NCBI GenBank assembly: GCA_963813065.1
Contig: CAWEXP010000008.1
Coordinates: forward strand, 9,289-73,288
Reading direction: 5' to 3'
DNA: 64,000 nucleotides
DNA from: Candidatus Kaiserbacteria bacterium
GTDB taxonomy: Bacteria > Patescibacteriota > Minisyncoccia > Phycocordibacterales > Phycocordibacteraceae
The notes under the pieces are model-generated. The model saw only the letters and a program-made list of their open reading frames with translations, searched no databases and was not told the origin of the DNA. The stretch's first letter is position 1; every line of letters starts with the position of its first letter. This document shows positions 3,137-64,000 of the stretch, one piece after another. A program made the translations under genes and the position numbers.

Positions 3137-5091
3137 TCTCCTTCTTCATATTCAATATGGTGGCCACCCATAGAGCGGAGAAATGAAGACGGCTCGGCAA
3201 CGAAGTCACTCCCATAAATTTTCCGAATGCGCGCGAGCGTGAGTACGAGTCGTGTTTTCGCGCGCGTCATCGCGACATAGAAAAGTCTCCGCTCCTCCTC
3301 TTCGTCGCGGTCCGCATCGTTGCCCATGCCTTGGTGCGGGAACAGTCCTTCTTCCATCCCCGCGACGAAGACCGTATCGAATTCCAAACCTTTCGCCGCG
3401 TGTACCGTCATCATGGTGACACCCCTAGACGGCTCTTGCGAGCCGTCGGGCGACCCGCCTTCGGCGGGTTTAGCCTTTTTCTCTGGACGATCCAATTCAT
3501 CCTGGTCGCCCGCGAGCGCAGTCTCGGCGAGAAAGGCCGCGATGCCCTCTTTGCCGGGCAGAGCATCGTGACGCGTCGCGAGCGTCGCCAGTTCCTGTAT
3601 GTTCTCGAATCGTTCGCGATCTTCTTCGCTCCCCTCGCCCATCTTCACCAATCCGCTTTTTTCCAGCACGAGCTTCACGAATGCTGAGGGCACCAACTTC
3701 TCGCTCGCGCGTTCGAGTTCAGCAAGAATTTTTTCAAACGCCTCGACCTTCGCGAGCTCGCCTGCGCGGAGCTCGTCGCGCTTGCCCGTCGCCATCTTTG
3801 CGAGCAAAACTTTCCCGATACCGCGTGGCGGCGAGCCCGCCGCGCGGATTCGATCGCTCGCGCGCGCCGGTTCGAGCGCGAGTCGCATCCACGCGAGCGC
3901 GTCCTTCACTTCTTTCCGTTCAAAAAATCTCGTGCCGAGCAATTTGTACGGCACACCCGCGCGCAAGAGTCCTTCTTCGAGTGCCCGCGATTGGAAGTTG
4001 GTTCGGAATAATATCGCGACGGTCTCCGGCTTCTCGCCCGCGCGCATGAGCGATTTTATTCTCTGCGCGATCCACTGCGCCTCTTGCTCGGCATTCACGG
4101 CAACATGCACGAGAATTTTTTCTCCCGCCGGATTATCTGTCACCGATTTTTTCTCTTTTCTATTTTTATTTTCCTCAATAACCGAATTCGCCGCATCGAC
4201 AATCGTCTTCGACGAACGATAATTGTGTTCGAGGATAATCGTCTCGGCGCCCGGATACCGCTCCTCGAATTCCAAAATATTTTCCATCTTCGCACCGCGC
4301 CACCCGTAGATTGATTGATCACCATCACCAACAACAAAAATATTTTTGTGTTTCTCGGCGAGCATGGCCGCGAGTTTTTCTTGCAGACGATTCGTATCTT
4401 GATATTCGTCGATGTGGATATACTGCCAGCGCGCTTGGGCGAGCGCGCGGACGTCGGCGTGTTCTTCGAGCAGTCGCACCGGGAGCGCGATGAGGTCGTC
4501 GAAGTCGAGCGCTTTTTCTTCTTTCAATACCTGCTCATACTTCCGCCACGCCTCCGCCGCGATCCGACCGCCGAAACTGCTACGGCCAAATTTCTCTGCG
4601 AACTCACTCACGCGCAGACCCTCCCCTTTCGCCTTCGAGATTCTGCCGAGTACCGCGCGCGGCGACAATTCTTTTGCCTCGACATCGAGCGCCTTCAGCG
4701 CTTGCCCAATCGCGCGCTCCGAGTCATCGCGATCGTAGATAGAAAAATAGCGCGGAAGCCCGATGGCATTGCCGTATTTCTCCAAGAGTTCCCGGCCCAG
4801 TCCATGAAAAGTTGCCACAAAAGGCATTCCGTTTGTTATCTGGTGCTTGGAGCTTGGTGCTTCCGCGTCCAACATCTTGTGGACGCGGTCTCGCATCTCG
4901 CGGGCGGCCTTGTTGGTGAAGGTGACGGCAAGAATTTCATGTGCAGGCACGCCCTGCCGGATAAGGTGATAGATCCGCGTCGCGAGGACGCGCGTTTTCC
5001 CGCTCCCGGCACCGGCAAGCACCGCGACCGGGCCCGAGGTTGCGAGGACCGCCCTTTTTTGCGCTTCATTCAATCCTTCGAGGTAATTCAC
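3112..5091 (-). CDS. uvrD: UvrD/PcrA-family ATP-dependent DNA helicase
   Basis: Walker A AGAGSGKT near the N-terminus and UvrD-family helicase motifs throughout its 659 aa. Confidence 0.9.
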   Translation of the reverse strand: MNYLEGLNEAQKRAVLATSGPVAVLAGAGSGKTRVLATRIYHLIRQGVPAHEILAVTFTNKAAREMRDRVHKMLDAEAPSSKHQITNGMPFVATFHGLGRELLEKYGNAIGLPRYFSIYDRDDSERAIGQALKALDVEAKELSPRAVLGRISKAKGEGLRVSEFAEKFGRSSFGGRIAAEAWRKYEQVLKEEKALDFDDLIALPVRLLEEHADVRALAQARWQYIHIDEYQDTNRLQEKLAAMLAEKHKNIFVVGDGDQSIYGWRGAKMENILEFEERYPGAETIILEHNYRSSKTIVDAANSVIEENKNRKEKKSVTDNPAGEKILVHVAVNAEQEAQWIAQRIKSLMRAGEKPETVAILFRTNFQSRALEEGLLRAGVPYKLLGTRFFERKEVKDALAWMRLALEPARASDRIRAAGSPPRGIGKVLLAKMATGKRDELRAGELAKVEAFEKILAELERASEKLVPSAFVKLVLEKSGLVKMGEGSEEDRERFENIQELATLATRHDALPGKEGIAAFLAETALAGDQDELDRPEKKAKPAEGGSPDGSQEPSRGVTMMTVHAAKGLEFDTVFVAGMEEGLFPHQGMGNDADRDEEEERRLFYVAMTRAKTRLVLTLARIRKIYGSDFVAEPSSFLRSMGGHHIEYEEGEWEDAIIV

Positions 5092-5348: not shown

Positions 5349-6299
5349 ATGAGCGCCGTTATGCCCAGCGCATCGACACCCACTCTCTCCGCGCCGACCA
5401 ACACCAACGCCAACGCCTCCCTCCCGCCCGACGTCTCGATGTCGGGCGGTTCTGCACTCCTCGCCTATTCGGGCCCCGCCGGCACCATCGCCGACGTCGC
5501 CAGCTCGACCCAGCCGGATACCATCTCGGTCTACGAGGTTCGCCCCGGCGACACGCTCTCGCAAATCGCCAACCTTTTTGACGTCTCGGTGAACACCATT
5601 GTCTGGGCCAACAATCTCGGGAGCGTGAAGGATGTTCACCCGGGCGATACGCTCATCATCTTGCCGGTATCGGGCATCCAGCGCGTCATCGCGAAGGGCG
5701 ACACCCTTAAATCGCTGGCCAAGAAATATGGCGCCGATGCGACCGAAATCGCCGAATTCAACGGCCTCGACCCTGCGGCACCGCTCGCGGTCGGCGACAC
5801 CCTCATCATCCCCGGCGGCGAGCTCAATGCACCGGCGCCCGCAGGCGCAAAGGCGTCAGCCAAGGCTTCGAGAGAAATCTATGAGCCCTATCTCGGCGGC
5901 TCGGGCGCGGCACTCGCGGGCTATTACACCGACCCGCTCCCCGGCGCGCCGGTCACCCAGGGCATCCACGGTTGGAATGCGGTTGACCTCGGCGCCGCCA
6001 AGGGTACGCCCATCCACGCCGCCGCCGACGGCATCGCCATCATCGCCAAGGACAATGGTTCCTGGAACGGTGGCTACGGCAATTACGTCGTAATCTCGCA
6101 CCCCAATGGCACTCAGACTCTCTATGCACACATGAAAGCCACGGCCGTCGCGGCTGGCTCGCCGGTTTCGCAGGGTCAAGTCATCGGCTATGTCGGCATG
6201 ACGGGCCTCACCACCGGGCCACACCTCCACTTCGAAGTCCGCGGTGCCAAGAATCCTTTTGCCAATTGCCCCGTCGGAAGCGTCTGCAGTCCGCAGTAG
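5349..6299 (+). CDS. LysM-domain M23-family peptidoglycan endopeptidase
   Basis: Two LysM-like repeats (YEVRPGDTLSQIA..., VIAKGDTLKSLAKKYG). M23 signatures: HNGT...YAHM and TGPHLHFEV. Forty-six in-frame codons upstream (5211..5348) encode a signal-peptide-like hydrophobic segment but lack a canonical start codon. Confidence 0.8.
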   Translation: MSAVMPSASTPTLSAPTNTNANASLPPDVSMSGGSALLAYSGPAGTIADVASSTQPDTISVYEVRPGDTLSQIANLFDVSVNTIVWANNLGSVKDVHPGDTLIILPVSGIQRVIAKGDTLKSLAKKYGADATEIAEFNGLDPAAPLAVGDTLIIPGGELNAPAPAGAKASAKASREIYEPYLGGSGAALAGYYTDPLPGAPVTQGIHGWNAVDLGAAKGTPIHAAADGIAIIAKDNGSWNGGYGNYVVISHPNGTQTLYAHMKATAVAAGSPVSQGQVIGYVGMTGLTTGPHLHFEVRGAKNPFANCPVGSVCSPQ

Positions 6300-9306: not shown

Positions 9307-9333
9307 CCGCCCGATGAAATCGGGCGGTTTTTT
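9307..9333 (+). terminator. Rho-independent terminator
   Basis: ccgcccgat-gaa-atcgggcgg stem followed by TTTTTT. Confidence 0.6.
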
Positions 9334-9352
9334 ATTCAAAACCAAACAAGCC
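9333..9352. repeat. direct repeat DR-L (tattcaaaaccaaacaagcc), a duplicate of the comM 3' terminus
   Basis: Matches 10406..10425 at 19 of 20 positions. Its reverse complement encodes G-L-F-G-F-E-stop, identical to the comM C-terminus. Confidence 0.7.
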
Positions 9353-9365
9353 TTTGCAGTGAAAT

Positions 9366-10199
9366 TTATAAGTTGAGATGATTTCTTAAATCTGTATGCG
9401 ATATTTTAAGACCTTGATCTGTTGCGTAATTCAAACGCACAGCACCGCCAGGCAGTAGTTTCCCATTTTCTTTTAAAAAAGAAACATTTACCACTCGCTT
9501 CCCAAGGTCTTTTACTGCGTCAACAGCGGGAACATAGTCCTGATCACCAGACAGTATTACTGCCACATCATAAATATCCTTTAATTTCACGAGATCCGTG
9601 GCCAATTTTACGTCGACAGCTTTTTCCTTACCTAATCGTTTTTCAAAAAGATCATAGCGAATCGAGCCAGAACGTCGAAATTCAATTGCTGTAAAATCTC
9701 CTGCGATTTTATTTTGTATATAGGTCCAACCATCAAATCTACCCTTCATGTGTACTTGATTCTTCTCTAGTGCAGAAAGCATTCTGTCCATTCGATCTTT
9801 TTGAGCCGCATCATTTTGGCCCTTCGACAAATCTTCTGCCCATGGCGGATAGCTTGTTAGAATCTGCTTTAACAAAATTCGATCTTTACGAGCTGTATTT
9901 AAGTTGTACGGCGCACAATCCAGATTAGAGACTACATACCAATACGTTCTGACGCGATACGCATCTTTACCCGCTACCTCACAGGCAATCCAGTCGAAAA
10001 ATTTAGTCCAGTCTGCGTTTTTGGGTAAATAATCCCACTCATTAAAAATAGGCGTTGGGAACAGCTCAACTATCGAATGCCGAAGATTTTCTCCGTCAAC
10101 AAAAATACAGACTCGTTTACCGTGGTTGTGATCGGTGGGCATGAGCAAAGGCGGCTCGACGGCCGCCTTTGTTATATCACATTCTTTCCCCGAATCCAC
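9366..10199 (-). CDS. NYN/LabA-like domain protein (predicted RNase), 277 aa
   Basis: VCIFVDGENL ... VILSGDQDYVPAV motifs typical of NYN/LabA (PIN-like). AT-rich codon usage unlike its neighbours. Confidence 0.7.
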   Translation of the reverse strand: MDSGKECDITKAAVEPPLLMPTDHNHGKRVCIFVDGENLRHSIVELFPTPIFNEWDYLPKNADWTKFFDWIACEVAGKDAYRVRTYWYVVSNLDCAPYNLNTARKDRILLKQILTSYPPWAEDLSKGQNDAAQKDRMDRMLSALEKNQVHMKGRFDGWTYIQNKIAGDFTAIEFRRSGSIRYDLFEKRLGKEKAVDVKLATDLVKLKDIYDVAVILSGDQDYVPAVDAVKDLGKRVVNVSFLKENGKLLPGGAVRLNYATDQGLKISHTDLRNHLNL

Positions 10200-10322
10200 G
10201 GGGGTTACCCGTATGTTATGCGCGTGTTGTCTTTAAGTCAAGATGAAATTATCAGGATGTGCATATCGTTAAAATATAGAAATATCTAAGGAACAATTTC
10301 CTGTTGTTCTGTGAGACACCTT

Positions 10323-10358
10323 GAACCACCTCAGAATAAAAATATTCTGAGGTGGTTC
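10323..10358. other. perfect 16-bp stem-loop (gaaccacctcagaata-aaaa-tattctgaggtggttc) between comM and the cassette gene
   Basis: Read directly from the sequence. No flanking U-tract on either strand. Confidence 0.6.
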
Positions 10359-10404
10359 GCATCTGAACCGGTTATCAAGTGATGTGGTTCGTCTAAAATC
10401 CCAA

Positions 10405-11970
10405 CTATTCAAATCCAAACAAGCCACGCGGACGATACTGGAGGGCCTCGTGCACGAACGCGGGGACAACCGAGTCGGCGCCCGCGAGGTCGGCGATGGT
10501 ACGCGCGACGCGCATGGTGCGATGGTACGCGCGCGGCGATAGTTTCATCCGTGCGGCGGCTTGCGTCAACGTCTCTTTGCTCGCGGTGGTGAAGCCGCTC
10601 TTCTCGTCGAGTTCGCGGCTCGTGAGGTGCGCGTTTGTTGCACCCTTCTTCCCTGTTCTCTTTTCTGCGCGAGCGCGCGCGGCAAGAACGCGCGCGCGAA
10701 CTTTTTCTGAGGATTCTCCGGTGGCAAGTTTCGAGAGTGTCTCGTGCGGGACAAGCGGTACTTCGATCCAGAGATCAAGGCGGTCAACAATCGGCCGCGA
10801 GATCTTGCGTGCCTGACGCAACGCGGCGCGCACATTCGTGACGGCGTCTTCAGAGAGCGTCTCGGCCGGATTCATCGCCGCGACAATCATGCAATCCGCC
10901 GGGAAGGTGATGGTCGCGCGAGCGCGCGAGACCGTGACGATTCTGTCTTCGAGCGGTTGGCGCAGAGCCTCGAGCGCCCGCGCCTCGAACTCGGGGAATT
11001 CGTCGAGAAATAAAACGCCCTTGTGTGCGAGCGTCACCTCACCCGCCTTGGGGAATGCGCCGCCGCCCACGATGGCGACGTGCGAGACCGAGTGGTGCGG
11101 CGCACGGAAGGGTGGCCAGTACACCGCTTCGCCTTCTTTTAATAATCCCGCAGTCGAGTGTATCGCGGTTACTTCGAGCACTTCGTCGTTGGTGAGGGGT
11201 GGGAGGATGCCGGACAAAGCGCGGGCGAGCATCGTCTTGCCGGTGCCCGGCGGACCATAGAAAACGATATTGTGCCGACCCGCGGCGGCGATTTCGAGTG
11301 CACGCTTAGCGCTCTCCTGCCCCTTCACATCCGCGAGGTCGATGGCGGGCGGAGGCGGCACCGCGACGCGCTCGCGCACGAGCCGCGGTAATCTTTTTTC
11401 ACCTTTCAAATGTTGTAAAAGATCGGCCAAAGTCTCGGGCGCATAGACCGCGACACCCTCGGCGAGCAAGGCTTCGCGCGCGTTGCCTGGCGGGACATAC
11501 ACTGTTTTCACGCCTTTTCTCTTGGCGGCCAAGACCTGTGGCAAGACGCCGCGCGTCGAGCGGAGCGTGCCGTCGAGTGCAAGTTCTCCTGCAAACAATG
11601 CTTCTTCTTCGAGTGCTTTCAAATCGTCAGCCGCGATCAGATACGCGAGCGCGAGCGGCAAGTCATAATGCGAACCTTCTTTCTTCAAGTCCGCGGGCGA
11701 GAGCGAGAGAATTATTTTTTTATTTTGTTGCTTGGGCGGCTTGTAGCCCGAGTGACGAATCGCGGCGCTGACGCGATCGCGCGCTTCCTCGACTGCCTTG
11801 TCGGCGAGCCCGACGACGGAGAACGCATGGAGTCCGCGCGTGAGATCGGCCTCGACCGATACGAGTTCGGCCGCCGCACCGACCGGTTGTGCGGCAAGCG
11901 TCTTCGCGTAGCCGTGTTTCGGTTGCGCGACTTTTTTCTGCGCGGGTTGTGGAGAGTGCGAGCTCGACAC
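10405..11970 (-). CDS. comM: ComM/YifB-family Mg-chelatase-like AAA+ ATPase
   Basis: N-terminal Lon-like domain, Walker [11 protein letters not shown], Walker [11 protein letters not shown]. 521 aa. Confidence 0.85.
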
Positions 11971-21694: not shown

Positions 21695-21766
21695 GCCCCG
21701 ATGGTGAAATGGATATCACAACAGCCTTCGAAGCTGTTGTTCCAGGTTCGAATCCTGGTCGGGGCA
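21695..21766 (+). tRNA. tRNA-Arg (anticodon TCG)
   Basis: Manual cloverleaf: acceptor GCCCCGA/TCGGGGC, D-arm GTGA-AATGGATA-TCAC, anticodon loop CTTCGAA, T-arm CCAGG-TTCGAAT-CCTGG. Confidence 0.8.
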
Positions 21767-21805
21767 CTACTTCGCTCAGAGTACTGAGCTTCGCAGTGCA
21801 AGCAC
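21761..21805. repeat. attL-like repeat overlapping the last 6 nt of tRNA-Arg
   Basis: ggggcactacttcgctc is identical to 27503..27519. The following ~28 nt are about 80% identical. Confidence 0.6.
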
Positions 21806-23923: not shown

Positions 23924-25336
23924 CTAATCCGCGAGCGTGATTTGCCGGTCATTCAATATCAACCGATCTCGCAAGTGCTCCAGCAGCTCCCGCTTCTCCT
24001 CTCGGCTGCCATTCTTCAGCAGATACTTAGCGTATTTGCGTATGTCCATCTCCTTGGCCTCGATGGTGTCCATAGTGCCATCCACCTCCGCTCGCAGCTT
24101 GTTGTACCGGGACACCTCGCGCTCGATGAGGTGCCGCGCCCCGATCTCGTCGAGGGAGATGCGGTCGATAAGAGTGGCGAGCTGCTCAAGCACGCGCTCC
24201 TCCCGCAGATACGGGTTCTTGCACTGGGTATCCTTGGCGCGAGAGCAGGAGTAATAGATGTACGATACCGGCTCTCCGGTACTGAGCAGTTTAGATTTTT
24301 CTTGCGCTGTGATGCCTGAGCCGCAGTACCCGCAGAGGAGGAGCTTGGTGAAGTTCCATTCCTTGAATCTGGTCTTTGGGCGATTCTCCTCTGCGATCTT
24401 TTCTTGTACCGCTTGGAATAATTCCTGAGTGATGAGCGGCGTATGCTTGCCGGTATACCAATTGCTCGAGCCTCGTGGATATTCGAAGACGCCACAGTAG
24501 AAGGGATTCTTGAGCATTTTGTATAGGGTAGATAGGTTCATGCTCTTGCCGATTCGGGAGGCGAAGTGCACATCGCGCTTGAGCCACCCGTGTACCTTGC
24601 GGCCGCTCCAACGCTCGACACCAACTTTCTCAAACACTTGCTTGATGATAGGGGAGCGGACTGGATCAACGAGTACCTCACAGCGATGATCCTTTCGACC
24701 ATCATTCAAGTATCCCGTTGGCGCGATGCCAGGCCAGAGTCCCATTTCGACTCGCGCTCTGAGACCGCGCTTCACGTTGACGCGCTTGTTGTCGTTCTCG
24801 AGCTTGGCCTGCGAGCCGAGAATCATGAGCAAGAACTTCTCATTCGGGTTATTGCCGAACCGCTGGCCGTACGTCCTAATGTCCACCAAGTGCTTGCTGT
24901 CCATCAGGTCCACGATGCGGCCGAGGTCTCCGGCGTTCCTGCTAATGCGGTCTGGTGCCCAGGTTAAGATGCCGTTGAACTTCCCGGCCTTCAGCTCCTC
25001 CACGATCTCGTTGAACACCGGCCGCGCCCCGGCTTCCTTGGCCGAGTGCGATTCGCGCTTCATTTCGACAATCTCCAATTTCTCCTTCTTCGCCAAGGCG
25101 AGCATCTCCTTCACCTGGCTCTCGATGCTCAATACCTGCTGTTCCTCACTCTCTGTGCTCTTGCGAGCGTAGAGGCAATACCGCACCGTCTGCACCTCCA
25201 CCAAGGGAGGAGCCGCCCCGAAACCGCCCTGAATCATTGCTGTTTCCATTGTTATTGCCGTTATTGCTAACGGTCTAAGGGATGACGCAACCCCTCGCGG
25301 GTGTCCAGCGAGGGGTTGTTGGTATCTTTTAATCAA
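23924..25336 (-). CDS. large serine recombinase (resolvase N-terminal domain + recombinase domain + zinc ribbon)
   Basis: [20 protein letters not shown] catalytic-Ser motif, recombinase domain and C-terminal Cys cluster. The true start is probably an internal Met near 25249. Confidence 0.85.
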
Positions 25337-27502: not shown

Positions 27503-27548
27503 GGGGCACTACTTCGCTCGGATTACCGAGCTACGCAGTGCACGGCAC
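27503..27548. repeat. attR-like repeat
   Basis: See 21761..21805. Preceded by ccagttcagtacagtgaggg, which resembles a degraded tRNA T-arm and acceptor. Confidence 0.6.
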
Positions 27549-56426: not shown

Positions 56427-56533
56427 ATACCCAAACGATAGCACGAACACGAATTGACAAGAACCCCGCACACGACCATGATGTCCGACGGGCGCCCCCT
56501 TTGAGGAGCGCGGTACAAACGAGAGAGGAACGT

Positions 56534-56716
56534 ATGGGGCTGAAACCGGAAACGTATAGGGAAAAAATTAAACGCTTGGCCGCCGAGGCAGCAGAACGCA
56601 ATAGTGAGCTGGTGCCCGATCCGGAAGGATGTGTCTTGCGTCCCCGTTCTATCACGGAGATGCAAACCGCTATCCACGAAGGAAAGATCGAGGTCAGTAT
56701 GAGCTCATCAGAATAA
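56534..56716 (+). CDS. candidate small protein (60 aa)
   Basis: GAGAGGA sits upstream of ATG 56534. A strong terminator follows. Confidence 0.35.
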   Translation: MGLKPETYREKIKRLAAEAAERNSELVPDPEGCVLRPRSITEMQTAIHEGKIEVSMSSSE

Positions 56717-56720
56717 ACAT

Positions 56721-56756
56721 GGGCGGGCGCTCTAGCGCCCGCTTTTTATATTTTTA
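56721..56756 (+). terminator. Rho-independent terminator
   Basis: gcgggcgc-tcta-gcgcccgc stem followed by TTTTTATATTTTT. Confidence 0.6.
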
Positions 56757-56833
56757 CAGAACCTGAAGACATTGACAGTTTTGTTGCATAGTGCTAGTCT
56801 ATTTTTAGGCCGCCAACCCCGCTCGACGGGCTC

Positions 56834-57855
56834 AATCCGAACACTCGAATTTCATGCGCCTCGGCGCTTTTTTCGTTTCCGTACCGCAGCTAATGCTTCC
56901 GCCGGAGTTTTGTATTGGAGGCATTTCAGTATCCTCCGGTTCAGCTTGTCCTCGAGCTTTTGTATAAATGCCTTTGAATAGCGAGAAATGTTTGCGCCTT
57001 TCGGTATGTCTTTGCGTATGACGCCGTTTGTATTCTCAACCGTTCCTTTCTCCCAGGAGTGATACGGCCGACAGAAATAGATGCGCACCCCCAGAAGAGT
57101 GGCGAGTGCCTGATGATCTCGGAACAAAATATCGTTGTCAGTGGTGATGGTGCGGAGCTCGGGGAATCTCTGTTGAATGCGGAGGAATGCCCGGTGCACG
57201 TTCGCCACTGACACATCGAGAATGCGTTCGATGAACGTGACGCGGAGCTTCCGGTCGACCACCACGAGCAGGATGCCTCTGCCAGTCTTGCCCGAGACAA
57301 TGAAGTCAGCCTCGACATCTCCGCTCCTCGAACGAGCGTTGATATGCCTGGGCCGTTTGTCGATGAAGGTTCGCTCTGAAAGAGCCGCGACTCTCGGGTG
57401 ATACTTTCTTCGTTTCTGCTTTCGCGCGTTCCGATGCGACTCAATTCTCCGGCCATACACGCTTTTGATGAATCGGTACACGCCGTCTTTCGAGATGGTC
57501 GGCAGACGCTTGGCATACTTCCGGACTCTTCCGGCGATGTTCTCGGGCGATTGGTCGTCATACAACAGCTCTTCCACGAGTGAACGCAGACCCGCATGCC
57601 CGACGATCTTCATGCCTTGATACTTCGCGTACTTTCTTCGTGCATACGCCTTGTGTGCAGCCTTCTGTACATCATACAAACCTCGCACTCGATTCCTCTT
57701 CAACTCTTCCGAGATGCTGGAAACACTGCGGCCAAGAGCTCGAGCAATCGCACGGAGCGAATACTTCTTGCGCTTCAGTATTGAAATCTCAGACCGCTCG
57801 CTCGTGCTCAGCTGCTTCCAACGTTTCTTTTTTCATGCACGCACAATACCGCGAG
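56834..57855. mobile_element. IS30-family insertion sequence (~1.02 kb)
   Basis: 14-bp terminal inverted repeats aatccgaacactcg (56834..56847) and cgagtgttcggatt (57842..57855) bracket an IS30-type transposase gene. Confidence 0.7.
56852..57826 (-). CDS. IS30-family transposase, N-terminal HTH region out of frame at an A6 tract
   Basis: DDE core with HSWEKGTVENTNGVIRKDIPKG. ATG at 57826 gives MKKETLEAAEHERAV-stop, whereas removing one A at 57818..57823 yields MKKKRWKQLSTSERSEISILKRKKYSLRAIARALGRSVSSISEELKRNRV..., a full IS30 N-terminus. Confidence 0.7.
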   Translation of the reverse strand, partial: KRWKQLSTSERSEISILKRKKYSLRAIARALGRSVSSISEELKRNRVRGLYDVQKAAHKAYARRKYAKYQGMKIVGHAGLRSLVEELLYDDQSPENIAGRVRKYAKRLPTISKDGVYRFIKSVYGRRIESHRNARKQKRRKYHPRVAALSERTFIDKRPRHINARSRSGDVEADFIVSGKTGRGILLVVVDRKLRVTFIERILDVSVANVHRAFLRIQQRFPELRTITTDNDILFRDHQALATLLGVRIYFCRPYHSWEKGTVENTNGVIRKDIPKGANISRYSKAFIQKLEDKLNRRILKCLQYKTPAEALAAVRKRKKRRGA

Positions 57856-57933
57856 TGTTCGGATTCATATGAGAATGCGCGAACCGACATCACTCCTTTG
57901 GGGTGTCGCTTGCCGGAAAAACAGGAGGTGTCT

Positions 57934-58284
57934 ATGCGTACCAATGTCGCTGTAGCCCATCGCTACAAGCTCGTTCCAACCGACCCCAATGTGACGATCC
58001 CCGCGCTTCGCAATTTGAAACCTGGCGAACGGATCGTGTATCACACCGGATGCCTCGACTCCGACCGGAGCGACCACGACGTCAACCTGGTCGCCAACAC
58101 TGCCTTCGCGCTCGCCCACAGTGGGGAAATCCACATTGTGCAGCGCCGGGTGGCTCCGCCTGATGGCGGCCGCGAAGAACGGACGTACCGACCGCGCGGC
58201 AGGGCATACGGACGGGGATTCCGCTACGCTGCCGTCACGGGCAACGGCAGCGGCTTCCAGTACATCGCTATCGGAGCAAAATAA
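57934..58284 (+). CDS. hypothetical protein (116 aa)
   Basis: AGGAGG sits 6 nt before ATG 57934. A terminator follows. Confidence 0.5.
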   Translation: MRTNVAVAHRYKLVPTDPNVTIPALRNLKPGERIVYHTGCLDSDRSDHDVNLVANTAFALAHSGEIHIVQRRVAPPDGGREERTYRPRGRAYGRGFRYAAVTGNGSGFQYIAIGAK

Positions 58285-58291
58285 CTACGTA

Positions 58292-58320
58292 CCCCGCGCT
58301 TCGGCGCGGGGATTTTTTAT
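58292..58320 (+). terminator. Rho-independent terminator
   Basis: ccccgcgc-ttcg-gcgcgggg stem followed by ATTTTTTATT. Confidence 0.6.
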
Positions 58321-58343
58321 TCATATTTGCTACACTAGCCTCC

Positions 58344-59243
58344 ATGAACAATGGCGAAAGAATAATGCGTATCGCAGAAGAGCCACTCGATCCGGTCTTG
58401 GAACGAGCACACAACAAGGCACTAGCCTTCATGCACGACAAGGCGATACCGTCGGACAAAGAAGACGCGGAGCGAGCGGAGCAGATCAAGACGCATTTTG
58501 GTGTTGAAGATAAGGGGCGACAGATGGCGCGCATCTTCGAGGCAATGGTGTGCGATTTGTCCTCGTCCTACACCCTACCGAATGACAAATATAAAATGCC
58601 GCAGCCAGGCTGGTTCGGGTATCGCGGCGTCGCCATAAAAACTTCTGATTATGATGACTTCCTCAACCACACCGACTTGGTGCTTGAGTTCGACGGTGGG
58701 GCCAAGGATCCGCGGCGCGTCCAGATTGCAGTCGATCTCACCTTTGGTGGACACGACGAAACGATACAGAAAAAATTAGCAACAACTCAAAATGAAATCA
58801 CCTCCGGCGGCGGCCGACAGTTACGCTATTTTGAATCTGAAAAGTCGGGGAAGAAACGTAATCTGCATCATTTGCCGAGCGCAGTACTGGGTATTGGATA
58901 TCCAACTATATCCGGATTGGCAAAACTGTGGGTCAGTGAGGACCCGAAGGACGAACAGAAACTCCGCACCAGTGCGGTACGCAAGATTATTGCCCAAGAG
59001 CTGCTCGAACAAGTCGGTGCTCATCGCGTGGAATTAGAGAAAGAATTGCGGGCACATCCCGAGCGATCGGCAGAACTCCACGACCTACTCGAACAATATA
59101 CGCTCGCTCACCATTTCGCTAAAGACTTTTTCAATCGTGTCGCTGATGCGAAGTATAAAGACGGGGAAGACGAGGATCCGGTATTCCGCAAGCTCATGGC
59201 CGGGAGGAAGACCGAGGCACGGGAGCTGGAGGCCGCAGAGTGA
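58344..59243 (+). CDS. hypothetical protein (299 aa)
   Basis: Long open frame. No family recognised. Confidence 0.45.
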   Translation: MNNGERIMRIAEEPLDPVLERAHNKALAFMHDKAIPSDKEDAERAEQIKTHFGVEDKGRQMARIFEAMVCDLSSSYTLPNDKYKMPQPGWFGYRGVAIKTSDYDDFLNHTDLVLEFDGGAKDPRRVQIAVDLTFGGHDETIQKKLATTQNEITSGGGRQLRYFESEKSGKKRNLHHLPSAVLGIGYPTISGLAKLWVSEDPKDEQKLRTSAVRKIIAQELLEQVGAHRVELEKELRAHPERSAELHDLLEQYTLAHHFAKDFFNRVADAKYKDGEDEDPVFRKLMAGRKTEARELEAAE

Positions 59244-59247
59244 CGCT

Positions 59248-59808
59248 GTGACCCGAACGACACTGCTCGTCTGTACCACCATCTGCATCGCGACGAATAT
59301 CGTCATCTGGCGAGACATTTTTATGCCTCACCTCGAGGTCCGCGTGCTCGGTGTGGGGAATGGTGATGCCATCTTGCTGACCACACCGAGCAGGAAAACG
59401 ATTTTGATAGATACCGGCCCCGACGCATCAATCCTGCGCGCGCTCGGCCAGGCTTTGCCGGAGTGGCAGAGGCATCTTGATGCAGTTATTTTGACGAGCT
59501 CGGTCGCAGACGCGACCGGTGGTTTACCAGAAGTAGAAAAAAAGTATACCGTCGGCGCCATATTGCAGGCGCCCCAATTGCGAGAGGGAACCCGACTCTC
59601 GCTCGGCGGAGGCATTTTCATCGAGGTGCTCTGGCCGAGCCTTGCGGCAGAAAACATGAAGCCTGCCGACAGCGCGCTCGCAGTGCGTATCAGTGGCGGC
59701 ACGAAATCGTATCTGATTGAAGAAAATCTCTCGACGCGAGTACAAAAATGGCTCGATGTCCGAGCCGATGTGACTATTTCGACTAGCACCCCCGCAGGGG
59801 AATATTAG
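59248..59808 (+). CDS. metallo-beta-lactamase-fold protein resembling the ComEC C-terminal domain, with N-terminal signal anchor
   Basis: VRVLGVGNGDAILLTTPSRKTILIDTGPD...LDAVILTSS (MBL motif region). GTG 59248 gives the hydrophobic N-terminus TTLLVCTTICIATNIVIW; the alternative ATG is 59323. Confidence 0.55.
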   Translation: MTRTTLLVCTTICIATNIVIWRDIFMPHLEVRVLGVGNGDAILLTTPSRKTILIDTGPDASILRALGQALPEWQRHLDAVILTSSVADATGGLPEVEKKYTVGAILQAPQLREGTRLSLGGGIFIEVLWPSLAAENMKPADSALAVRISGGTKSYLIEENLSTRVQKWLDVRADVTISTSTPAGEY

Positions 59809-60047
59809 ATAACGCCGGCTTTCTTGAGGGTGGCGTACGCGCCGTTCTTTTTGACGTGCTTCATGCCTTTGACCGAGAGGTCAACGATGAGCGTCTTGCC
59901 GAGCTCCGCGACATAGATGCGGCGGCGCTGGAGATTCGCCTTGCGGCGGACCTTGCCGGTCGGATTGAATTGCGTCGCGCGGGTACGATTGGAGTACCGC
60001 CCGCCTACTTGCGTGCTCTTGCCGGTGACTGCGCAGGTGCGTGCCAT
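59805..60047 (-). CDS. rpmB: 50S ribosomal protein L28
   Basis: MARTCAVTGKSTQVGGRYS...TRATQFNPTGKVRRKANLQRRRIY matches the L28 consensus (CxVTGK ... PNLQ). Confidence 0.85.
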   Translation of the reverse strand: MARTCAVTGKSTQVGGRYSNRTRATQFNPTGKVRRKANLQRRRIYVAELGKTLIVDLSVKGMKHVKKNGAYATLKKAGVI

Positions 60048-60084
60048 AGTTGCTCGATACTAGCATAGGTTCTATGCTCTGCAA

Positions 60085-60714
60085 ATGGTCCTCGCTTTAA
60101 CCGTCGTCATCCTCATCCTCTCGATTATCGCGCACGAGGTCGCGCACGGCTACGCCGCCGACGCACTTGGCGATCCCACCGCGCGGCTCGCCGGTCGCCT
60201 GACGCTCAATCCGCTCCCACACATCGACCTCGTGGGCTCTATCCTCGTCCCTGCGCTCCTCATTTTTTCGGGCTCACCCATCCTCTTCGGCTGGGCGAAA
60301 CCGGTACCCTACAATCCGTACAATCTGCGCAATCACCGTTGGGGCGAATTTGTTGTCGCCATCGCGGGCATCGCGACCAATGTTGCACTCGCACTCATCT
60401 TCGGTTTTATTGCTCGGTGGGGTGGGGGATTCGGCCTCTCCGCGGCGGCGGTCTCACTCGCGGGCACCATCGCCTTCGTGAACCTCTTCTTGGGCATGTT
60501 CAATCTCATCCCCTTCCCGCCGCTCGACGGCTTTACTGCGCTCCGCTCTGCACTGCCCTGGAATCTCGCGCGCGGCCTCAACACCTTCGAGCACCAGATT
60601 CGCTCGACCGGCCCCGTGGCGCTCCTCCTCTTCCTCCTCGTCTTCTCCTATATCCTCGCCAATCCCTTCTTCAATCTTGTTTCTTGGATTTTCAAACTTA
60701 TTGTGGGCGGGTAG
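60085..60714 (+). CDS. site-2 protease family (peptidase M50) membrane metalloprotease
   Basis: HEVAHGYAA HExxH motif within a TM helix. Polytopic membrane protein. Confidence 0.7.
   Translation: MVLALTVVILILSIIAHEVAHGYAADALGDPTARLAGRLTLNPLPHIDLVGSILVPALLIFSGSPILFGWAKPVPYNPYNLRNHRWGEFVVAIAGIATNVALALIFGFIARWGGGFGLSAAAVSLAGTIAFVNLFLGMFNLIPFPPLDGFTALRSALPWNLARGLNTFEHQIRSTGPVALLLFLLVFSYILANPFFNLVSWIFKLIVGG
60643..60714. repeat. copy A of a 72-bp direct repeat (the current 3' end of the M50 gene)
   Basis: About 85% identical to 62608..62679. Both encode FSYILANPFF(N/D)LVSWIF(K/R)LI(V/T)GG-stop. Confidence 0.65.
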
Positions 60715-62607
60715 TTCCAACAGCGACCTAAATTCTCTGGCCACCAAGAAGGTAGTATCATGCCTGCAATGCTTCTTAGTGCAAAATCTTCGTTCGGTGG
60801 ATTCTGGACGGCGACTATCTTTGTCGTTACAGACGCGTGGAAGAATAACCGTCGGCTATTTATCCTGACAACACTGGCTTCGGTGCTGGTTGCGGTACTC
60901 CCGTATGCAGTTAACGGCACCCAAGCTTTGTTGCTGAATGAACTCGCCGCTTCTGTAACGCACGGTTTTGTGCCACAGAAGATAGTGTTGCTTATCGCTG
61001 TCATCGGAGTTTTATTTCTTATGCGTGATGCGGTATCGCTTGTGTATGCGTATCTCGATCGAATTCTCTACCATCGAGGAGCAAAACTTCGTCAGATGGA
61101 GTTTTCTGCGAAAATGCTCGAGCTCGACCAGGCGACTCATGAAGATCCAAAGTTTCAGGACGAGCTGCAAGTCTTAAACGAGCATAGCTCGACCTATGTA
61201 ATACCGAACTTCCTGGACTCGCTTACCAGTAATGCGCAGAACGTTTTTGGTTTCGCAACCGCCGCCTTAATTGTCCTTGCGATTGACTGGAGACTCTTTT
61301 TCCTCATCGTCATATTCAGCATTCCCCGCTTATACGTGGAACTGAAGTACGGGCGGCAGTTGTGGGGATTCTTCCACTCGCAGTCAGAAGACCGACGCCG
61401 TTTCAGAGAATTCAGTCGGCAAATTGATTCAGAGAGCATCGCCGAGCTTCAAACGTTCCAGTCCGAGCCCTTCTTTCTTGGCCGGATGGACTCGATGCTT
61501 GAACGATGGTTTAACGGCCAGATTGCCGAGGATCGAAAGAAGTTCTGGCTTTCATCGCTCGCACAGATTTTTGCTACTACTGCAATCGTTGTTGCTTTGG
61601 CCCTCCTGGTCTACCAGAGCCTCAACGGCAGGATGCACGTGGGAACACTGGTGTTCGCTATTTCCTCGATAGTCGGACTCCAGGGTTCGGTTTCAGGATT
61701 TTTCTTAGGTCTCGGCAGTATTTCGCGTTTTGCGCGACCCACGAATGCCTACCAAGCAATTATGAAGCGAACACGCTTGGTGCAGCTTCCGGTTCATGGT
61801 GTGCGGCGAACGTTCATCAAAGCGCCGCGCATCGAGTTTCGGAATGTTACGTTTGCGTATCCGAGTAGGCCTGACCGCCCCATCTTAAAAAACTTCAATT
61901 TAACCATCGAACCTGGTGAACGTCTCGCGATTATCGGTATCAACGGCGCGGGCAAATCCACACTCATAAAACTTCTATGCCGGTTCTATGATCCGACAGA
62001 AGGGCAGGTGCTGATAGATGGTATTGACCTTCGAGAGATGGATCTTGCCGATTGGTATCGCATCCTGTCGTTGCTTTCGCAGGACTTCAATAGGTACCGA
62101 TTTCGGGTTGATGAGAACATCGGTCTTGGTCGCAGTGACTCGTCTCCAGATCGAGCGCGAGTGGAGGACTCCTCTATACGCGCGGAAGCGGATGAATTTA
62201 TATCGAAATGGGAAGGTTCCTACGAACAGCAGATTGGCACACAGTTCGGTGGGGTAGACCCCTCAGGAGGTCAGTGGCAAAAGCTGGCGCTTGCCCGAAC
62301 GCTCTATCGAGGTGCGCTGGTGACCATACTTGATGAACCAACGGCACACGTGGATGCTTCTGCCGAGCAACACATATTCGAGCGATTGTATGGGCAAGTG
62401 AGCCGTGACCAGACGCTCATCATCATTTCGCACCGTTTCTCGACGATACGTAATGCGGATCGGGTCTGTGTTATCGAAGATGGTCACGAAGTTGAGGTCG
62501 GCTCCCATGACGAGCTCATGAAGCTCGACGGAACCTACGCCCGTCTCTTCACGACTCAAGCAGAACAGTACCAATAGGCACTTTGAGGCAACAACTTGCT
62601 CATCATG
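60715..62607. mobile_element. single-gene cassette (ABC exporter) inserted at the 3' end of the M50 protease gene; no integrase inside
   Basis: Flanked by the duplicated gene terminus. A 24-codon orphan mini-ORF (62605..62679) reproduces the M50 C-terminus. Confidence 0.45.
60760..62577 (+). CDS. ABC transporter, fused permease/ATP-binding protein (exporter type)
   Basis: Six-TM N-terminal domain. Walker A GINGAGKST, signature PSGGQWQKLALART, Walker B ILDEPTAHVD. Confidence 0.9.
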   Translation: MPAMLLSAKSSFGGFWTATIFVVTDAWKNNRRLFILTTLASVLVAVLPYAVNGTQALLLNELAASVTHGFVPQKIVLLIAVIGVLFLMRDAVSLVYAYLDRILYHRGAKLRQMEFSAKMLELDQATHEDPKFQDELQVLNEHSSTYVIPNFLDSLTSNAQNVFGFATAALIVLAIDWRLFFLIVIFSIPRLYVELKYGRQLWGFFHSQSEDRRRFREFSRQIDSESIAELQTFQSEPFFLGRMDSMLERWFNGQIAEDRKKFWLSSLAQIFATTAIVVALALLVYQSLNGRMHVGTLVFAISSIVGLQGSVSGFFLGLGSISRFARPTNAYQAIMKRTRLVQLPVHGVRRTFIKAPRIEFRNVTFAYPSRPDRPILKNFNLTIEPGERLAIIGINGAGKSTLIKLLCRFYDPTEGQVLIDGIDLREMDLADWYRILSLLSQDFNRYRFRVDENIGLGRSDSSPDRARVEDSSIRAEADEFISKWEGSYEQQIGTQFGGVDPSGGQWQKLALARTLYRGALVTILDEPTAHVDASAEQHIFERLYGQVSRDQTLIIISHRFSTIRNADRVCVIEDGHEVEVGSHDELMKLDGTYARLFTTQAEQYQ

Positions 62608-62679
62608 TTCTCCTACATCCTCGCCAACCCCTTCTTCGACCTCGTGTCTTGGATTTTCCGGCTCATAACGGGAGGGTAG
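62608..62679. repeat. copy B of the 72-bp direct repeat (displaced duplicate of the M50 3' end)
   Basis: See 60643..60714. Preceded by ATG 62605, in frame. Confidence 0.65.
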
Positions 62680-62687
62680 GAGGGTAC

Positions 62688-62715
62688 TTGACACAAGTCG
62701 AGTTTCGTGTATACT
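62688..62715 (+). promoter_or_regulatory. sigma70 consensus promoter TTGACA-16 nt-TATACT
   Basis: Hexamers at 62688..62693 and 62710..62715, upstream of 62773..63267. Confidence 0.55.
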
Positions 62716-62772
62716 GTGCGCAGGCCCTAACGCGTTCGCGTTGTGGGCACCACCCATTCGGAGGAGTTCTTC

Positions 62773-63267
62773 ATGCTCTCAATATCCAAGTTCGCGATTC
62801 TCGCGTCCGTCCTGTTCGCGCTCTCGGGCTCTGCCCAGGCGGGGAATTGGTTCCAACAAATGTCGACGCCACCAGCGTCGGAGTGGATCACCCGCGGCGA
62901 CATGGACATGGCCATGTTCGTCTTTAAGGGCCACTTGACCCCGTCCACGCCGTGGCACACGGACTTCATCCAGGGCCCGACGTTCTCGAACAAATACAGC
63001 GACGTCGCCCGGTTCTCAGTGAGCGGCGCCTCGGCAACGGTTCGCGTGCAATTCGAACGCGAGGAGCATGGCGATCGCTGGGTCAAGATCCAAGTGCTCC
63101 ACACCAGCCCCCACATGGTGAGTGGCCACGCCTACTACATCAAGAATGGCGCCTGCGATCACACCGTTGGAATGTTCGCAGACTGCGACGCCATGGAAGC
63201 GCGGGACTGGAAGGAAGTCTTCGACGCTGGCGCCGACTTCGCCAAAAAGCACGGGGCCACCTTCTAA
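62773..63267 (+). CDS. secreted hypothetical protein with signal peptide (164 aa)
   Basis: GGAGG sits before ATG 62773. Signal peptide MLSISKFAILASVLFALSGSAQA. A terminator follows. Confidence 0.55.
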   Translation: MLSISKFAILASVLFALSGSAQAGNWFQQMSTPPASEWITRGDMDMAMFVFKGHLTPSTPWHTDFIQGPTFSNKYSDVARFSVSGASATVRVQFEREEHGDRWVKIQVLHTSPHMVSGHAYYIKNGACDHTVGMFADCDAMEARDWKEVFDAGADFAKKHGATF

Positions 63268-63301
63268 CGAAGGCCACGAACAACGCAAATAGTTAATACC
63301 T

Positions 63302-63333
63302 GGCGCGGGACCCCTCCCGCGCCATTTTTATTT
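63302..63333 (+). terminator. Rho-independent terminator
   Basis: ggcgcggga-cccc-tcccgcgcc stem followed by ATTTTTATTT. Confidence 0.6.
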
Positions 63334-63789
63334 GGTGTGAGATGCGAAACGCCGCTGTTTTAGTTCTTGCCAGACGATAACGGCGAGGCTGAAAATGAAG
63401 AACAGTTTTCCGACAAACTGGGCGATATCGTCAGGACTGAAGGTGAACATGTCGAAATATGACCCAGGACTACCGCCAATCGGTAATTGGGTCAGGGCGA
63501 GGGAGATTAACAAAGCCCATAGGGAAAATTTGAGCCAAGTACGGAATACATTTCGACTGACAAAAATGGCGGCGAAAGCGGGAATAAGTGCAAATGATGC
63601 GAGTAAATAAATCGGGTCCAGAATATTGAACGTTATATTCCAAATTGGAGTGCGCAACACGCAGGCGGTAGCATCGGCACATCTATAGAGAAGCTCGACG
63701 ACAATCATGACGCCGAGAAGCGTGGCAAACGGCCAGACTTGTTTCATTTTATTTGAACGGGGCGTTGTTTCTAAATTTAGGGATTTCAT
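63328..63789 (-). CDS. hypothetical polytopic membrane protein
   Basis: Low-GC frame with 4 predicted TM helices. Start is probably MKQVWPF. Confidence 0.4.
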   Translation of the reverse strand: MKSLNLETTPRSNKMKQVWPFATLLGVMIVVELLYRCADATACVLRTPIWNITFNILDPIYLLASFALIPAFAAIFVSRNVFRTWLKFSLWALLISLALTQLPIGGSPGSYFDMFTFSPDDIAQFVGKLFFIFSLAVIVWQELKQRRFASHTK

Positions 63790-64000
63790 AGAAATTGGTG
63801 GATTGCTTTAAACAAAGTTCGAGTAAAGCTCTTGAACATACTATACACGGATTGGGCCGGCTGAACTGCGCCATAAACTGCCGCCGTTTGCGAGAAATCA
63901 GGAACGGTCACGGATGGCGTGATGAGCGGCTTTTTCTTTTTCACAAGAGCAATCTTCGCCGCGACGCGCACACGAGCTACAGAAAGTGTGGTCGTGGCGG

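Follow-up and report, generated by a model that had tools for sequence, protein, structure and literature searches.

The region described here lies in the 64-kb window, by which we mean the whole stretch of DNA analysed, and begins with a gene for a site-2 protease (Peptidase_M50, 209 aa, 60085..60714, + strand). Its translation shows the HEVAH and PPLDG motifs and scores above the Pfam gathering cut-off (PF02163, 52 bits vs cut-off 27). M50 is the last gene of a conserved block comprising SOD, ComEC-MBL, L28 and M50. The upstream synteny is kept in most of 80 loci, and the DNA downstream is not conserved. The 3' end of M50 is thus the edge of a deeply conserved block, where just one-sided homology is available.

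M50 is followed by a spacer of 45 nt (60715..60759, + strand), which from about 60725 consists of the 5' leader and ribosome-binding region of the next gene. That gene encodes a fused ABC exporter (605 aa, 60760..62577, + strand), an ABCB/MsbA-like half-transporter with the Pfam domains ABC_membrane and ABC_tran. The three motifs tested for are present in the translation (Walker A, GINGAGKST; signature, SGGQWQ; Walker B, ILDEPT) and the PDB matches are ABCB1, MsbA, and Sav1866, while the score falls below every NCBIfam equivalog cut-off. Directly downstream are the left arm and loop of a terminator (62578..62600, + strand), a remnant recognized by alignment with the terminators of L081, L085, L086, and L173.

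The native downstream gene, taken from the ORF list, encodes a secreted hypothetical protein of 164 aa (62773..63267, + strand) that has a host-like GC3 (0.82) and no match in Pfam or NCBIfam. It has its own promoter (TTGACA-16-TATACT, 62688..62715, + strand, 11/12 promoter match), a structured leader extending to about 62750 (-34.7 kcal/mol, z -2.3), and a predicted terminator (63301-63324). Rfam and tRNA scans of the region returned nothing.

As originally predicted, the 3' end of M50 (60643..60714, + strand, copy A) recurs beyond the ABC gene (62608..62679, + strand, copy B); the coordinates proved exact, and in a self-blastn of the window no direct repeat scores higher than this pair (E 3.2e-13). 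The copies are less alike than the ~85% nucleotide identity (~15% divergence) first estimated: 58 of 72 nt are identical (80.6%), as are 20 of 23 residues, and the stop codon has the same position. The ungapped match runs 13 nt further upstream, giving 85 nt at 79% (60630-60714 and 62595-62679). The search for a conserved crossover core by formal alignment yielded a longest identical run of just 12 nt. Copy B forms the orphan mini-ORF that had been described in frame with ATG 62605, and an alternative start exists at TTG 62596, with GAGG 7 nt upstream. Pfam likewise confirmed that the copies enclose only one gene, the fused ABC exporter, and no recombinase. We also ran tblastn with the last 32 aa of every ORF in the window that measures 120 aa or more (180 ORFs). 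The M50 tail gave the only match with E<1e-5 downstream of the gene copied (E 2.8e-12); the other such match (E 2.6e-5) connects two TrmB-like paralogues, separated by 28 kb, at their C-termini.

Insertion of the ABC gene at the M50 end

The closest relative, L089 (89% M50 identity), represents the empty site. There the M50 end passes straight into the TTGACA/TATACT promoter and leader that in the window come after copy B, and copy B with the next 68 nt can be aligned to the end of the L089 M50 gene and the DNA beyond it. Copy B is thus the displaced native end of M50. In the 80 species-level M50 loci we found neither a second M50 tail nor, within 7 kb, an ABC gene, in line with the predicted insertion after M50. 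These comparisons show that the ABC gene was inserted at the M50 end, copy A being the incoming version of the gene end, now the last 24-28 codons of M50, and copy B the native one.

The composition of the two copies differs. The GC3 of copy A, calculated over 23 codons, is 0.57 and that of the ABC gene 0.55 (host core, 0.71 +/- 0.06), whereas copy B (0.83) is like the M50 body (0.78). Between the copies dS is 1.15 and dN 0.09 (dN/dS 0.08), with synonymous and non-synonymous changes clearly unequal (Fisher P 3.6e-5); orthologous M50 genes of the window and L089 give a dS of 0.98 and a dN/dS of 0.07. Judged from these sequence comparisons, the divergence of A and B appears to be that of working orthologues of two species. 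The original prediction had left a choice between an old event decaying in place and a cassette-borne arm that supplies its own gene end. The latter fits better, since copy A has a cargo-like GC3, copy B is host-like and the differences are mostly synonymous.

An origin in situ would mean that the tail was duplicated, or arose as a long target-site duplication, and then diverged, or that copy B is the remnant of a decayed M50 paralogue. Such an origin agrees with the finding that A and B are each other's nearest among all M50 tails examined (80.6% vs at most 72.5% to any other). We nevertheless consider it highly improbable, because a dN/dS of 0.08 with a dS of 1.15 is incompatible with neutral drift of one copy (the model of one neutrally decaying copy is rejected at P 6e-4), copy B, the one not under selection, is richer in GC and resembles the host, and a second M50 tail or match is found at the locus in 0 of 80 relatives. 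The decayed paralogue, named at the outset as a possible refutation, fails on the collinearity of copy B with the L089 empty site.

The contig is from a MAG, and an assembly chimera of two co-existing strains was therefore weighed. A second assembly, the Logan assembly of ERR11630400, breaks off at 62357-62364, inside the ABC gene, where it also shows a deletion of 2 nt, which indicates that strain heterogeneity exists. However, the two copies have no common k-mer longer than 12 nt, so that a de Bruijn mis-join between them is impossible, and the junction of half-terminator and mid-M50 sequence must physically exist. Moreover, both junctions are reproduced by this different assembler with 99.9-100% identity (L174, window 57852-62364; L175, window 62357-64000). 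We regard a chimera as scarcely credible.

The nearest homologues of the ABC protein are 85-86% identical and occur in other genomic contexts. In six other contexts ABC homologues have their own promoter, leader, and strong terminator, of which the ABC unit of the window keeps just the leader and half of the terminator, the left one. The TTTACA-N17-TATAAT promoter of the six homologue loci is absent from the spacer at 60715..60759, where neither a promoter nor a terminator is predicted and the fold is no better than that of shuffled sequences (z 0.08). The terminator hairpin of L081 has a folding energy of -15.7 kcal/mol (z -4.1), compared with a z of -0.27 for the corresponding region of the window. 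The right junction, at about 62594-62600, falls inside the ABC terminator, and the ~7-nt CTTGCTC found there resembles the terminator loop at 5/7 positions and M50 at 6/7. The cargo has lost its promoter and half of its terminator, and the insert contains no recombinase. Elsewhere, the ABC homologues never adjoin M50 and no flanking repeats were found around them in other genomes, so the status of the unit as a self-contained mobile cassette stays putative.

Several classes of element were considered and rejected. A transposon or insertion sequence is contradicted by the lack of a transposase in the insert and by a repeat of 72-85 nt that is 20% diverged; comparison of the window with itself on both strands (E limit 1e-3) detected no inverted repeat at the insert ends. 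For an integron cassette, a structured element at the cassette 3' end is missing (fold z -0.27), and no IntI-type tyrosine recombinase was found among the 31 window ORFs put to Pfam, whose only recombination genes are a serine recombinase and an rve-family transposase. A diversity-generating retroelement was dismissed given the lack of a reverse transcriptase and the fact that, whichever copy is taken, an A is involved in just 3-4 of the 14 mismatches. A dif/Xer-type reading was also rejected.

A proposed route of entry

We propose that a donor segment was recombined into the M50 tail, with a homologous exchange on the left and an illegitimate join on the right, and we consider this account probable. 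A segment of ~1.95 kb from a related, putatively Kaiserbacteria-like donor would have entered the last ~28 codons of the host M50 gene, carrying a version of the M50 tail, the promoter-less ABC gene, and the left half of the ABC terminator. The left junction would be a homologous exchange inside M50; a homologous junction leaves M50 intact, with three conservative residue changes in the last helix. The 13 nt upstream of copies A and B differ at 4 positions, so that the left crossover is not placeable and part or all of M50 could be donor DNA. The right junction would be an illegitimate, microhomology-type join of the ABC terminator loop to M50 codon ~181, and the host tail would persist as a pseudo-end of 24-27 codons directly before the native promoter of the next gene. 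Without its own promoter, and with no terminator on either side, the ABC gene should be co-transcribed from the M50 promoter; based on consensus scans, the transcript would read through ABC into the old tail.

The most likely pathway would be homology-facilitated illegitimate recombination (HFIR) after DNA uptake, or a Campbell-type single crossover of a circle in which the M50 tail would be the only homology. The competence genes ComEC, ComM, PilB, and PilC are encoded in the window, and natural transformation has been demonstrated in Patescibacteria (PMC10633639). HFIR has been put forward to explain how 3' ends come to be displaced at T6SS and Rhs loci (PMC5361080), and its joints typically show 3-10 bp of microhomology (PMC3240628). 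It usually deletes recipient DNA and leaves no duplication (PMC3240628), whereas here the recipient tail and the downstream promoter are both retained, a duplication without the recipient deletion. Single crossover of a circle duplicates the homologous segment experimentally, as in lacZ duplications of 109-950 bp (PMC3240628). Against the proposed account, RecA-type exchange within 85 nt at 80%, with a longest run of 12 nt, would be very inefficient.

Also against this account, the donor arrangement, M50 followed by this ABC gene, was found neither among the 80 GTDB loci nor around the five closest ABC homologues (P0121-P0126). It is also absent from the context of P0026, whose tail has the last 9 residues of copy A, and a metagenome scan gave only matches of at most 48% identity. 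A protein search with the C-terminal 54 aa alone had no result, since too few 5-residue words were shared with any candidate. Searches of viral contigs and PLSDB gave no match and no phage or plasmid link. One contig of 1,999 nt (L173) holds an ABC homologue that is 74% identical and has a 29-nt terminal overlap, suggestive of an ABC unit that is circular or flanked by repeats. The contig occurs in four samples, among them SRR28401867, and its ABC unit measures 1,970 bp.

Similar footprints at other gene ends

The window contains a second insert of this type at the end of comM (10405-11970, Pfam Mg_chelatase). It is AT-rich, measures ~1.05 kb (9333..10425, - strand, found by local alignment), and has a GC of about 0.40, compared with 0.61 in comM. 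Its sole gene encodes an NYN-domain protein (9366-10199, Pfam NYN), and its 20-nt flanking repeats (10406-10425 and 9333-9352, 19/20 identical) hold the last 6 comM codons and the stop. The original prediction had likened the M50 locus to this comM/NYN cassette; the parallel is real, although the comM repeat, at 20 nt, is far shorter.

In related genomes, the same footprint occurs at the ends of L28 (L022, L023, and L176), EF-G (L043), and an MFS gene (L074). The distal copies in L176 and L023 are collinear with cassette-free relatives. The small cassette at the end of L28, a ribosomal-protein gene, is patchily distributed, being found in three genomes; its repeats measure 54, 41, and 77 nt, and the distance from the stop codon of the cargo to the right junction is 7, about 90, and about 32 nt. 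No boundary motif is common to the M50, comM, L28, EF-G, and MFS cases.

We tested about 1 Mb of related genomes for enrichment of such repeats. Under a strict criterion, with the repeat boundary at most 4 nt from the stop codon, 6 of the 26 significant direct repeats qualify, a significant excess over the 0.65 expected. A loose test, in which the repeat merely covers the stop codon, was not significant (7 observed vs 4.5 expected, P 0.13); long ORFs often arise spuriously in DNA as GC-rich as this. L064, one of the six, is no cassette but a gene duplicated in tandem, which leaves five cassette-type cases. An apparent repeat of the M50 tail in L060 was discarded as AT-rich, low-complexity noise.

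The recurrence of the footprint counts in favour of the proposed route of entry, and some of these cases also bear on the alternative of site-specific integration. Copies A and B would then represent attL and attR, on either side of a small integrative cassette with an attP that resembles the end of M50. Either an enzyme encoded elsewhere would have moved the cassette, such as the large serine recombinase at 23924-25336 or an Xer-type enzyme of the host, or the cassette would once have had an integrase that has since been lost. In favour of this view, e14 in icd, with the icdC C-terminal pseudogene, has the same architecture (PMC13626634). Two such cassettes occur within one 64-kb window that also has a recombinase gene, the L28 end carries one and the same two-gene cassette in three genomes, none of them the closest relative of another, and L173 may represent a circular or repeat-flanked ABC unit. 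Nonetheless, neither Pfam domains nor the antisense ORFs, which are also without Pfam match, reveal a recombinase in the insert, and there is no space for attP arm sites, as the truncated ABC terminator passes directly into the M50 homology. The longest identical A/B run is just 12 nt, the three L28 cassettes vary in repeat length and right-junction position, the cassettes lack a common boundary motif, and the right junction of the M50 insert looks illegitimate. Serine integrases are not known to rely on long homologies. We therefore judge site-specific integration to be improbable.

A broader reading of the footprint is that Patescibacteria carry a new class of recombinase-less cassettes with gene-tail homing arms (the last 6-45 codons), which we offer as a speculative suggestion. 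Host genes of such cassettes might include M50, comM, L28, and EF-G, with entry and exit via host recombination functions, an extension that we think rather doubtful. Their cargo, on an equally tentative view, could comprise the ABC exporter, the NYN protein, a toxin-antitoxin-like pair, and secreted proteins. It is conceivable, though unlikely, that the gene tail is always replaced with the old tail left behind, and that L173 is a free or repeat-flanked form.

The M50 locus shows base by base how an ultrasmall, packed genome gains an accessory gene while a conserved gene and the signals of its neighbour stay undamaged: the incoming DNA brings a replacement gene end, and the old end acts as a buffer before the next promoter. 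Classical mobile-element signatures are scarce in Patescibacteria, in which natural transformation is the one experimentally shown transfer route, and repeats that end at a stop codon could offer an easy marker of recent gene gain that needs no annotation. If a dedicated mechanism underlies the footprint, it would define a new kind of mobile cassette; if not, the locus is a clean natural case of one-ended recombination, mostly known from laboratory crosses and toxin loci.

Comparison with known systems

A close parallel is the insertion of e14 or phage 21 in icd of E. coli, where the incoming DNA likewise supplies a mostly synonymously diverged 3' end that leaves the gene intact (PMC13626634). 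The native end likewise remains as a C-terminal pseudogene beyond the insert (icdC), and recombination between the two copies would restore a chimeric gene (PMC13626634). Flanking direct repeats and an empty target site in relatives also match this type. However, e14 measures 15 kb and encodes its own site-specific recombination, whereas the M50 insert is a single cargo gene with neither a recombinase nor space for att arms. The far junction also differs, being at M50 a probable illegitimate join within the cargo terminator.

HFIR products and the orphaned 3' ends of T6SS effector, Rhs, and CDI loci combine a conserved upstream anchor and a non-homologous tail with 3-10 bp of microhomology (PMC5361080, PMC3240628). 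New modules push the old 3' end downstream in such loci, as at M50, and the host here has competence genes. Classic HFIR products delete recipient DNA, while the M50 locus duplicates it, and the displaced piece is a polymorphic toxin tip with its immunity gene in those systems but the tail of a housekeeping protease here. A Campbell-type single crossover does give a direct duplication flanking the insert, as at M50 (PMC3240628), although the M50 homology, unlike that in such cases, is just 85 nt at about 80%, and a circular form is hinted at only for the 74%-identical ABC homologue of L173. Integron cassettes are likewise promoter-less single ORFs oriented with an upstream promoter and without an internal recombinase; the attC-like structure, GTTRRRY core, IntI, and attI are all absent here, and the flanks are copies of host coding sequence.

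In the hybrid atp6 gene of Allomyces mitochondria, a foreign C-terminal segment and one ORF were inserted and the original C-terminus was left downstream; the cargo there is the endonuclease that drives the event, unlike at the M50 locus. The minimal mobile elements of Neisseria are small cassettes exchanged via flanking conserved genes after transformation, but they have two homologous flanks and leave no duplication. The M50/ABC locus is an integrase-less variant of the known displaced gene ends of the icd/e14 kind.

The M50 tail repeat and the ABC gene between its copies

The M50 protease gene (209 aa, 60085-60714, + strand, PF02163), whose best named relatives in a protein search come from Kaiserbacteria and Paceibacteria MAGs, is followed after a 45-nt spacer (60715-60759) by a gene for a fused ABC exporter of 605 aa (60760-62577, + strand; Pfam ABC_membrane and ABC_tran). 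The exporter is ABCB/MsbA-like and falls below the cut-off of every curated family. A second M50 tail starts 18-30 nt past its stop codon. The predicted duplication of the M50 tail around the ABC gene is borne out: in a self-comparison of the window, the gene-proximal tail (copy A, 60643-60714) and the downstream tail (copy B, 62608-62679) form the strongest direct repeat of the entire window (E 3e-13). Their identity, first put at about 85%, is 80.6% (58/72 nt; 20/23 residues), with the stop codons in register, and with another 13 nt on the upstream side the match spans 85 nt at 79%. When the last 32 residues encoded by every long ORF were compared, the M50 tail was the only duplication with E <1e-5 downstream of its own gene; the other such match involves two TrmB-like paralogues 28 kb apart (E 2.6e-5). 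The displaced tail (62586-62679) is translatable in principle, with GAGG 7 nt upstream of a TTG at 62596; the putative peptide would be 27 aa, hydrophobic, and equivalent to the last M50 helix.

Both junctions were recovered in an independent Logan assembly of run ERR11630400, on contigs L174 (window 57852-62364) and L175 (62357-64000). L174 has a 2-nt deletion at 3583-3584 (window 61436-61437; GAGAGCATC becomes GAGGATC) that frameshifts the ABC gene into pieces of 246 aa and at least 290 aa, so that either the assembly is wrong here or part of the population already has an inactive cargo gene. Because the 246-aa fragment represents its cluster, the ABC protein of the window is absent from the protein-search list.

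As the original prediction held, the ABC exporter is the single gene between the copies: no recombinase, transposase, terminal inverted repeat or attC-like structure was found in or at the insert, and no likeness of the insert to phage or plasmid records was detected. Homologues of the exporter (58-86% identity) occur in at least four other genomic contexts, never adjoining M50 (one after another ABC gene, one after a tRNA and two between unrelated genes), and no flanking repeats were found around them. Elsewhere they form a full transcription unit comprising a TTTACA-N17-TATAAT promoter, a conserved leader, the coding sequence and a strong hairpin terminator (-15.7 kcal/mol, z -4.1 in locus L081). 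In the window the leader is kept from about 60725 and this promoter is missing, and the terminator is reduced to its left arm and loop (62580-62600; fold z -0.27). No promoter or terminator is predicted between M50 and ABC, so the M50 promoter should drive the ABC gene, with transcription continuing into copy B.

Two of the homologous loci have features of their own. In L087 (about 5850-5920) a homologue (68% identity) comes right after a tRNA-like sequence, where islands typically sit. Contig L173 (logan:SRR28401867_40821, 1-1999), seen in four samples, has as its sole gene a homologue with 74% nucleotide identity to the window gene, complete with promoter and terminator. The contig starts and finishes with the same 29 nt; the unit is a circle, a tandem array, or bordered by perfect repeats 29 nt or longer.

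Empty site and origin of copy A

Across 80 species-level loci with M50 orthologues, the upstream block SOD / ComEC-MBL / L28 / M50 is kept and the DNA downstream of M50 is not. None of the 80 has an ABC gene within 7 kb of M50, and none has a second M50 tail (best off-target score 27 bits, compared with 50 bits in the window). In the closest relative found, L089 (M50 89% identical in protein and 81% in nucleotides), the M50 end is followed at once by a TTGACA-N16-TATACT promoter and then a GC-rich leader. Window positions 62608-62747, copy B and what follows, align with L089 615-753, which makes L089 an empty site. Copy B, with all the DNA to its right, is thus how M50 natively continues.

Composition sets copy A apart. 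GC3 is 0.71 +/- 0.06 in fifteen confident host genes, 0.78 in the M50 body and 0.83 in copy B, and it is 0.55 in the ABC gene and 0.57 in copy A. Of the 14 mismatches, 10 (8 of 10 differing codons, judged by third position) set A/T in copy A against G/C in copy B, and 7 of these 10 codons differ by synonymous changes alone. The two tails differ by dS 1.15 and dN 0.09 (dN/dS 0.08, Nei-Gojobori), matching orthologous M50 genes of the window and L089 (dS 0.98, dN/dS 0.07). Neutral drift of one copy after a local duplication would be expected to leave about 15 non-synonymous changes; about 4.5 are observed (P 6e-4), too few for a local duplication with one unselected copy. The ortholog-like pattern indicates instead that the tails diverged inside working genes of two different organisms. 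Copy A thus arrived together with the ABC cargo, from a donor whose distance from the host was about that of L089. Among the databases searched, no protein tail is nearer to A than B is, so the donor itself is unsampled. The empty site, GC3 and dN/dS all support the earlier proposal that an insertion brought in its own attachment arm and left the native end displaced.

Recurrence of the footprint

Around 1 Mb of related loci was surveyed for significant direct repeats 0.3-8 kb apart (n=26), and a footprint was scored when the repeat ended at most 4 nt from the stop of an ORF (100 aa or longer) and its other copy lay downstream. Six of the 26 repeats end at a stop codon, compared with 0.65 expected, and none of 5,000 random placements reached six. 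One of the six, in L064, is a tandem gene duplication and was rejected as a cassette. The other five are the window's M50 case (85 nt, 79%, insert of about 1.9 kb with the ABC exporter) and four in relatives. L043 (12177-13299) has the last 44 codons of EF-G (fusA) duplicated almost perfectly (139 nt, 98.6%) around a lower-GC insert of 845 nt, which encodes a 258-aa secreted protein whose N-terminus forms a membrane or signal segment. In L074 the host gene encodes an MFS transporter (repeat 54 nt, 93%; insert 472 nt). The L28 genes of L022 (6155-6772; 54 nt, 78%) and L023 (2318-2990; 41 nt, 83%) are directly followed by homologous two-gene cassettes, and L176 (603-1270; 77 nt, 92%), outside the six, has the cassette too. 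Its ORFs, of 79 aa and 81 aa, have no Pfam match; in our reading, their arrangement recalls an antitoxin paired with a RelE/ParE-like toxin. By M50 and L28 identity these three genomes are not each other's nearest relatives, and closer relatives are without the cassette. The distal L28 fragment in L176 and L023 is collinear with the DNA after L28 in cassette-free relatives. The repeat halts at the stop codon in every case, and no sequence motif common to the cassette borders was seen among the cases compared.

The parallel drawn earlier with the window's comM/NYN cassette also stands. The comM gene (10405-11970, - strand) is followed by an AT-rich insert of about 1.05 kb (9333-10425, - strand; GC about 0.40) with one NYN-domain gene. 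Each end of the insert has a 20-nt repeat (19/20) with the final six codons of comM plus its stop, and beyond the distal copy comes a terminator, apparently the native one of comM.

The window holds other elements as well. Direct repeats of 40 nt (90%; 21761-21800 and 27503-27542) begin in the 3' end of a tRNA-Arg gene (21695-21767) and enclose 5.7 kb that is probably an integrated element in its own right; this stretch has genes for a large serine recombinase (23924-25336, - strand), a T4SS-pilin-like protein and a tRNA-Gly. Between SOD and ComEC-MBL (56500-59250) lie an rve-family (integrase-core) transposase (56852-57703, - strand) and a 299-aa hypothetical gene; most relatives have SOD and ComEC-MBL next to, or almost next to, each other, which marks this segment as another insertion in the same conserved block.

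Proposed one-ended recombination and known systems

One junction is a homologous exchange within the M50 tail, and the other is probably an illegitimate join. This could arise by homology-facilitated illegitimate recombination (HFIR) of linear donor DNA, with the illegitimate join upstream of the anchor's end, or from a circular molecule entering by a single crossover, with the M50 tail as its only homology and the join as its closure point. HFIR joints have 3-10 bp of microhomology and are usually accompanied by deletions, and a circle integrating by one crossover leaves the homologous segment duplicated (PMC3240628). For T6SS and Rhs loci, HFIR has been put forward as the source of displaced 3' ends (PMC5361080). 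Patescibacteria are known to undergo natural transformation (PMC10633639), and the host encodes ComEC, ComM, PilB and PilC. M50 is the last gene of the conserved block, so a relative's DNA is homologous on one side only; with one-sided homology, such one-ended events are the only route.

At the right junction, the M50-like sequence begins within the ABC terminator loop, and 7 nt there (CTTGCTC) resemble both the loop (CTAGTTC / CTCGTTC) and M50 (CTTCCTC), as would be expected of a microhomology join. On the left, the 13 nt upstream of copies A and B differ at 4 positions, which fits either a crossover at about 60643 or donor DNA that reaches deeper into M50. A classical integrase-type reaction at M50 is less likely, given that there is no arm sequence between the cargo terminator and copy B, that the longest identical run of the two copies is just 12 nt, and that junction positions vary among the analogous L28 cassettes. 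The M50/ABC unit is either a dedicated mobile cassette or the mere product of one-ended recombination with a relative.

The e14 insertion in icd, with icdC as the pseudogene (PMC13626634), has this architecture, as do the orphaned 3' ends at toxin loci. Unlike these systems, the M50/ABC locus has no recombinase, carries a single housekeeping-neutral cargo gene, and has a far junction that looks illegitimate.
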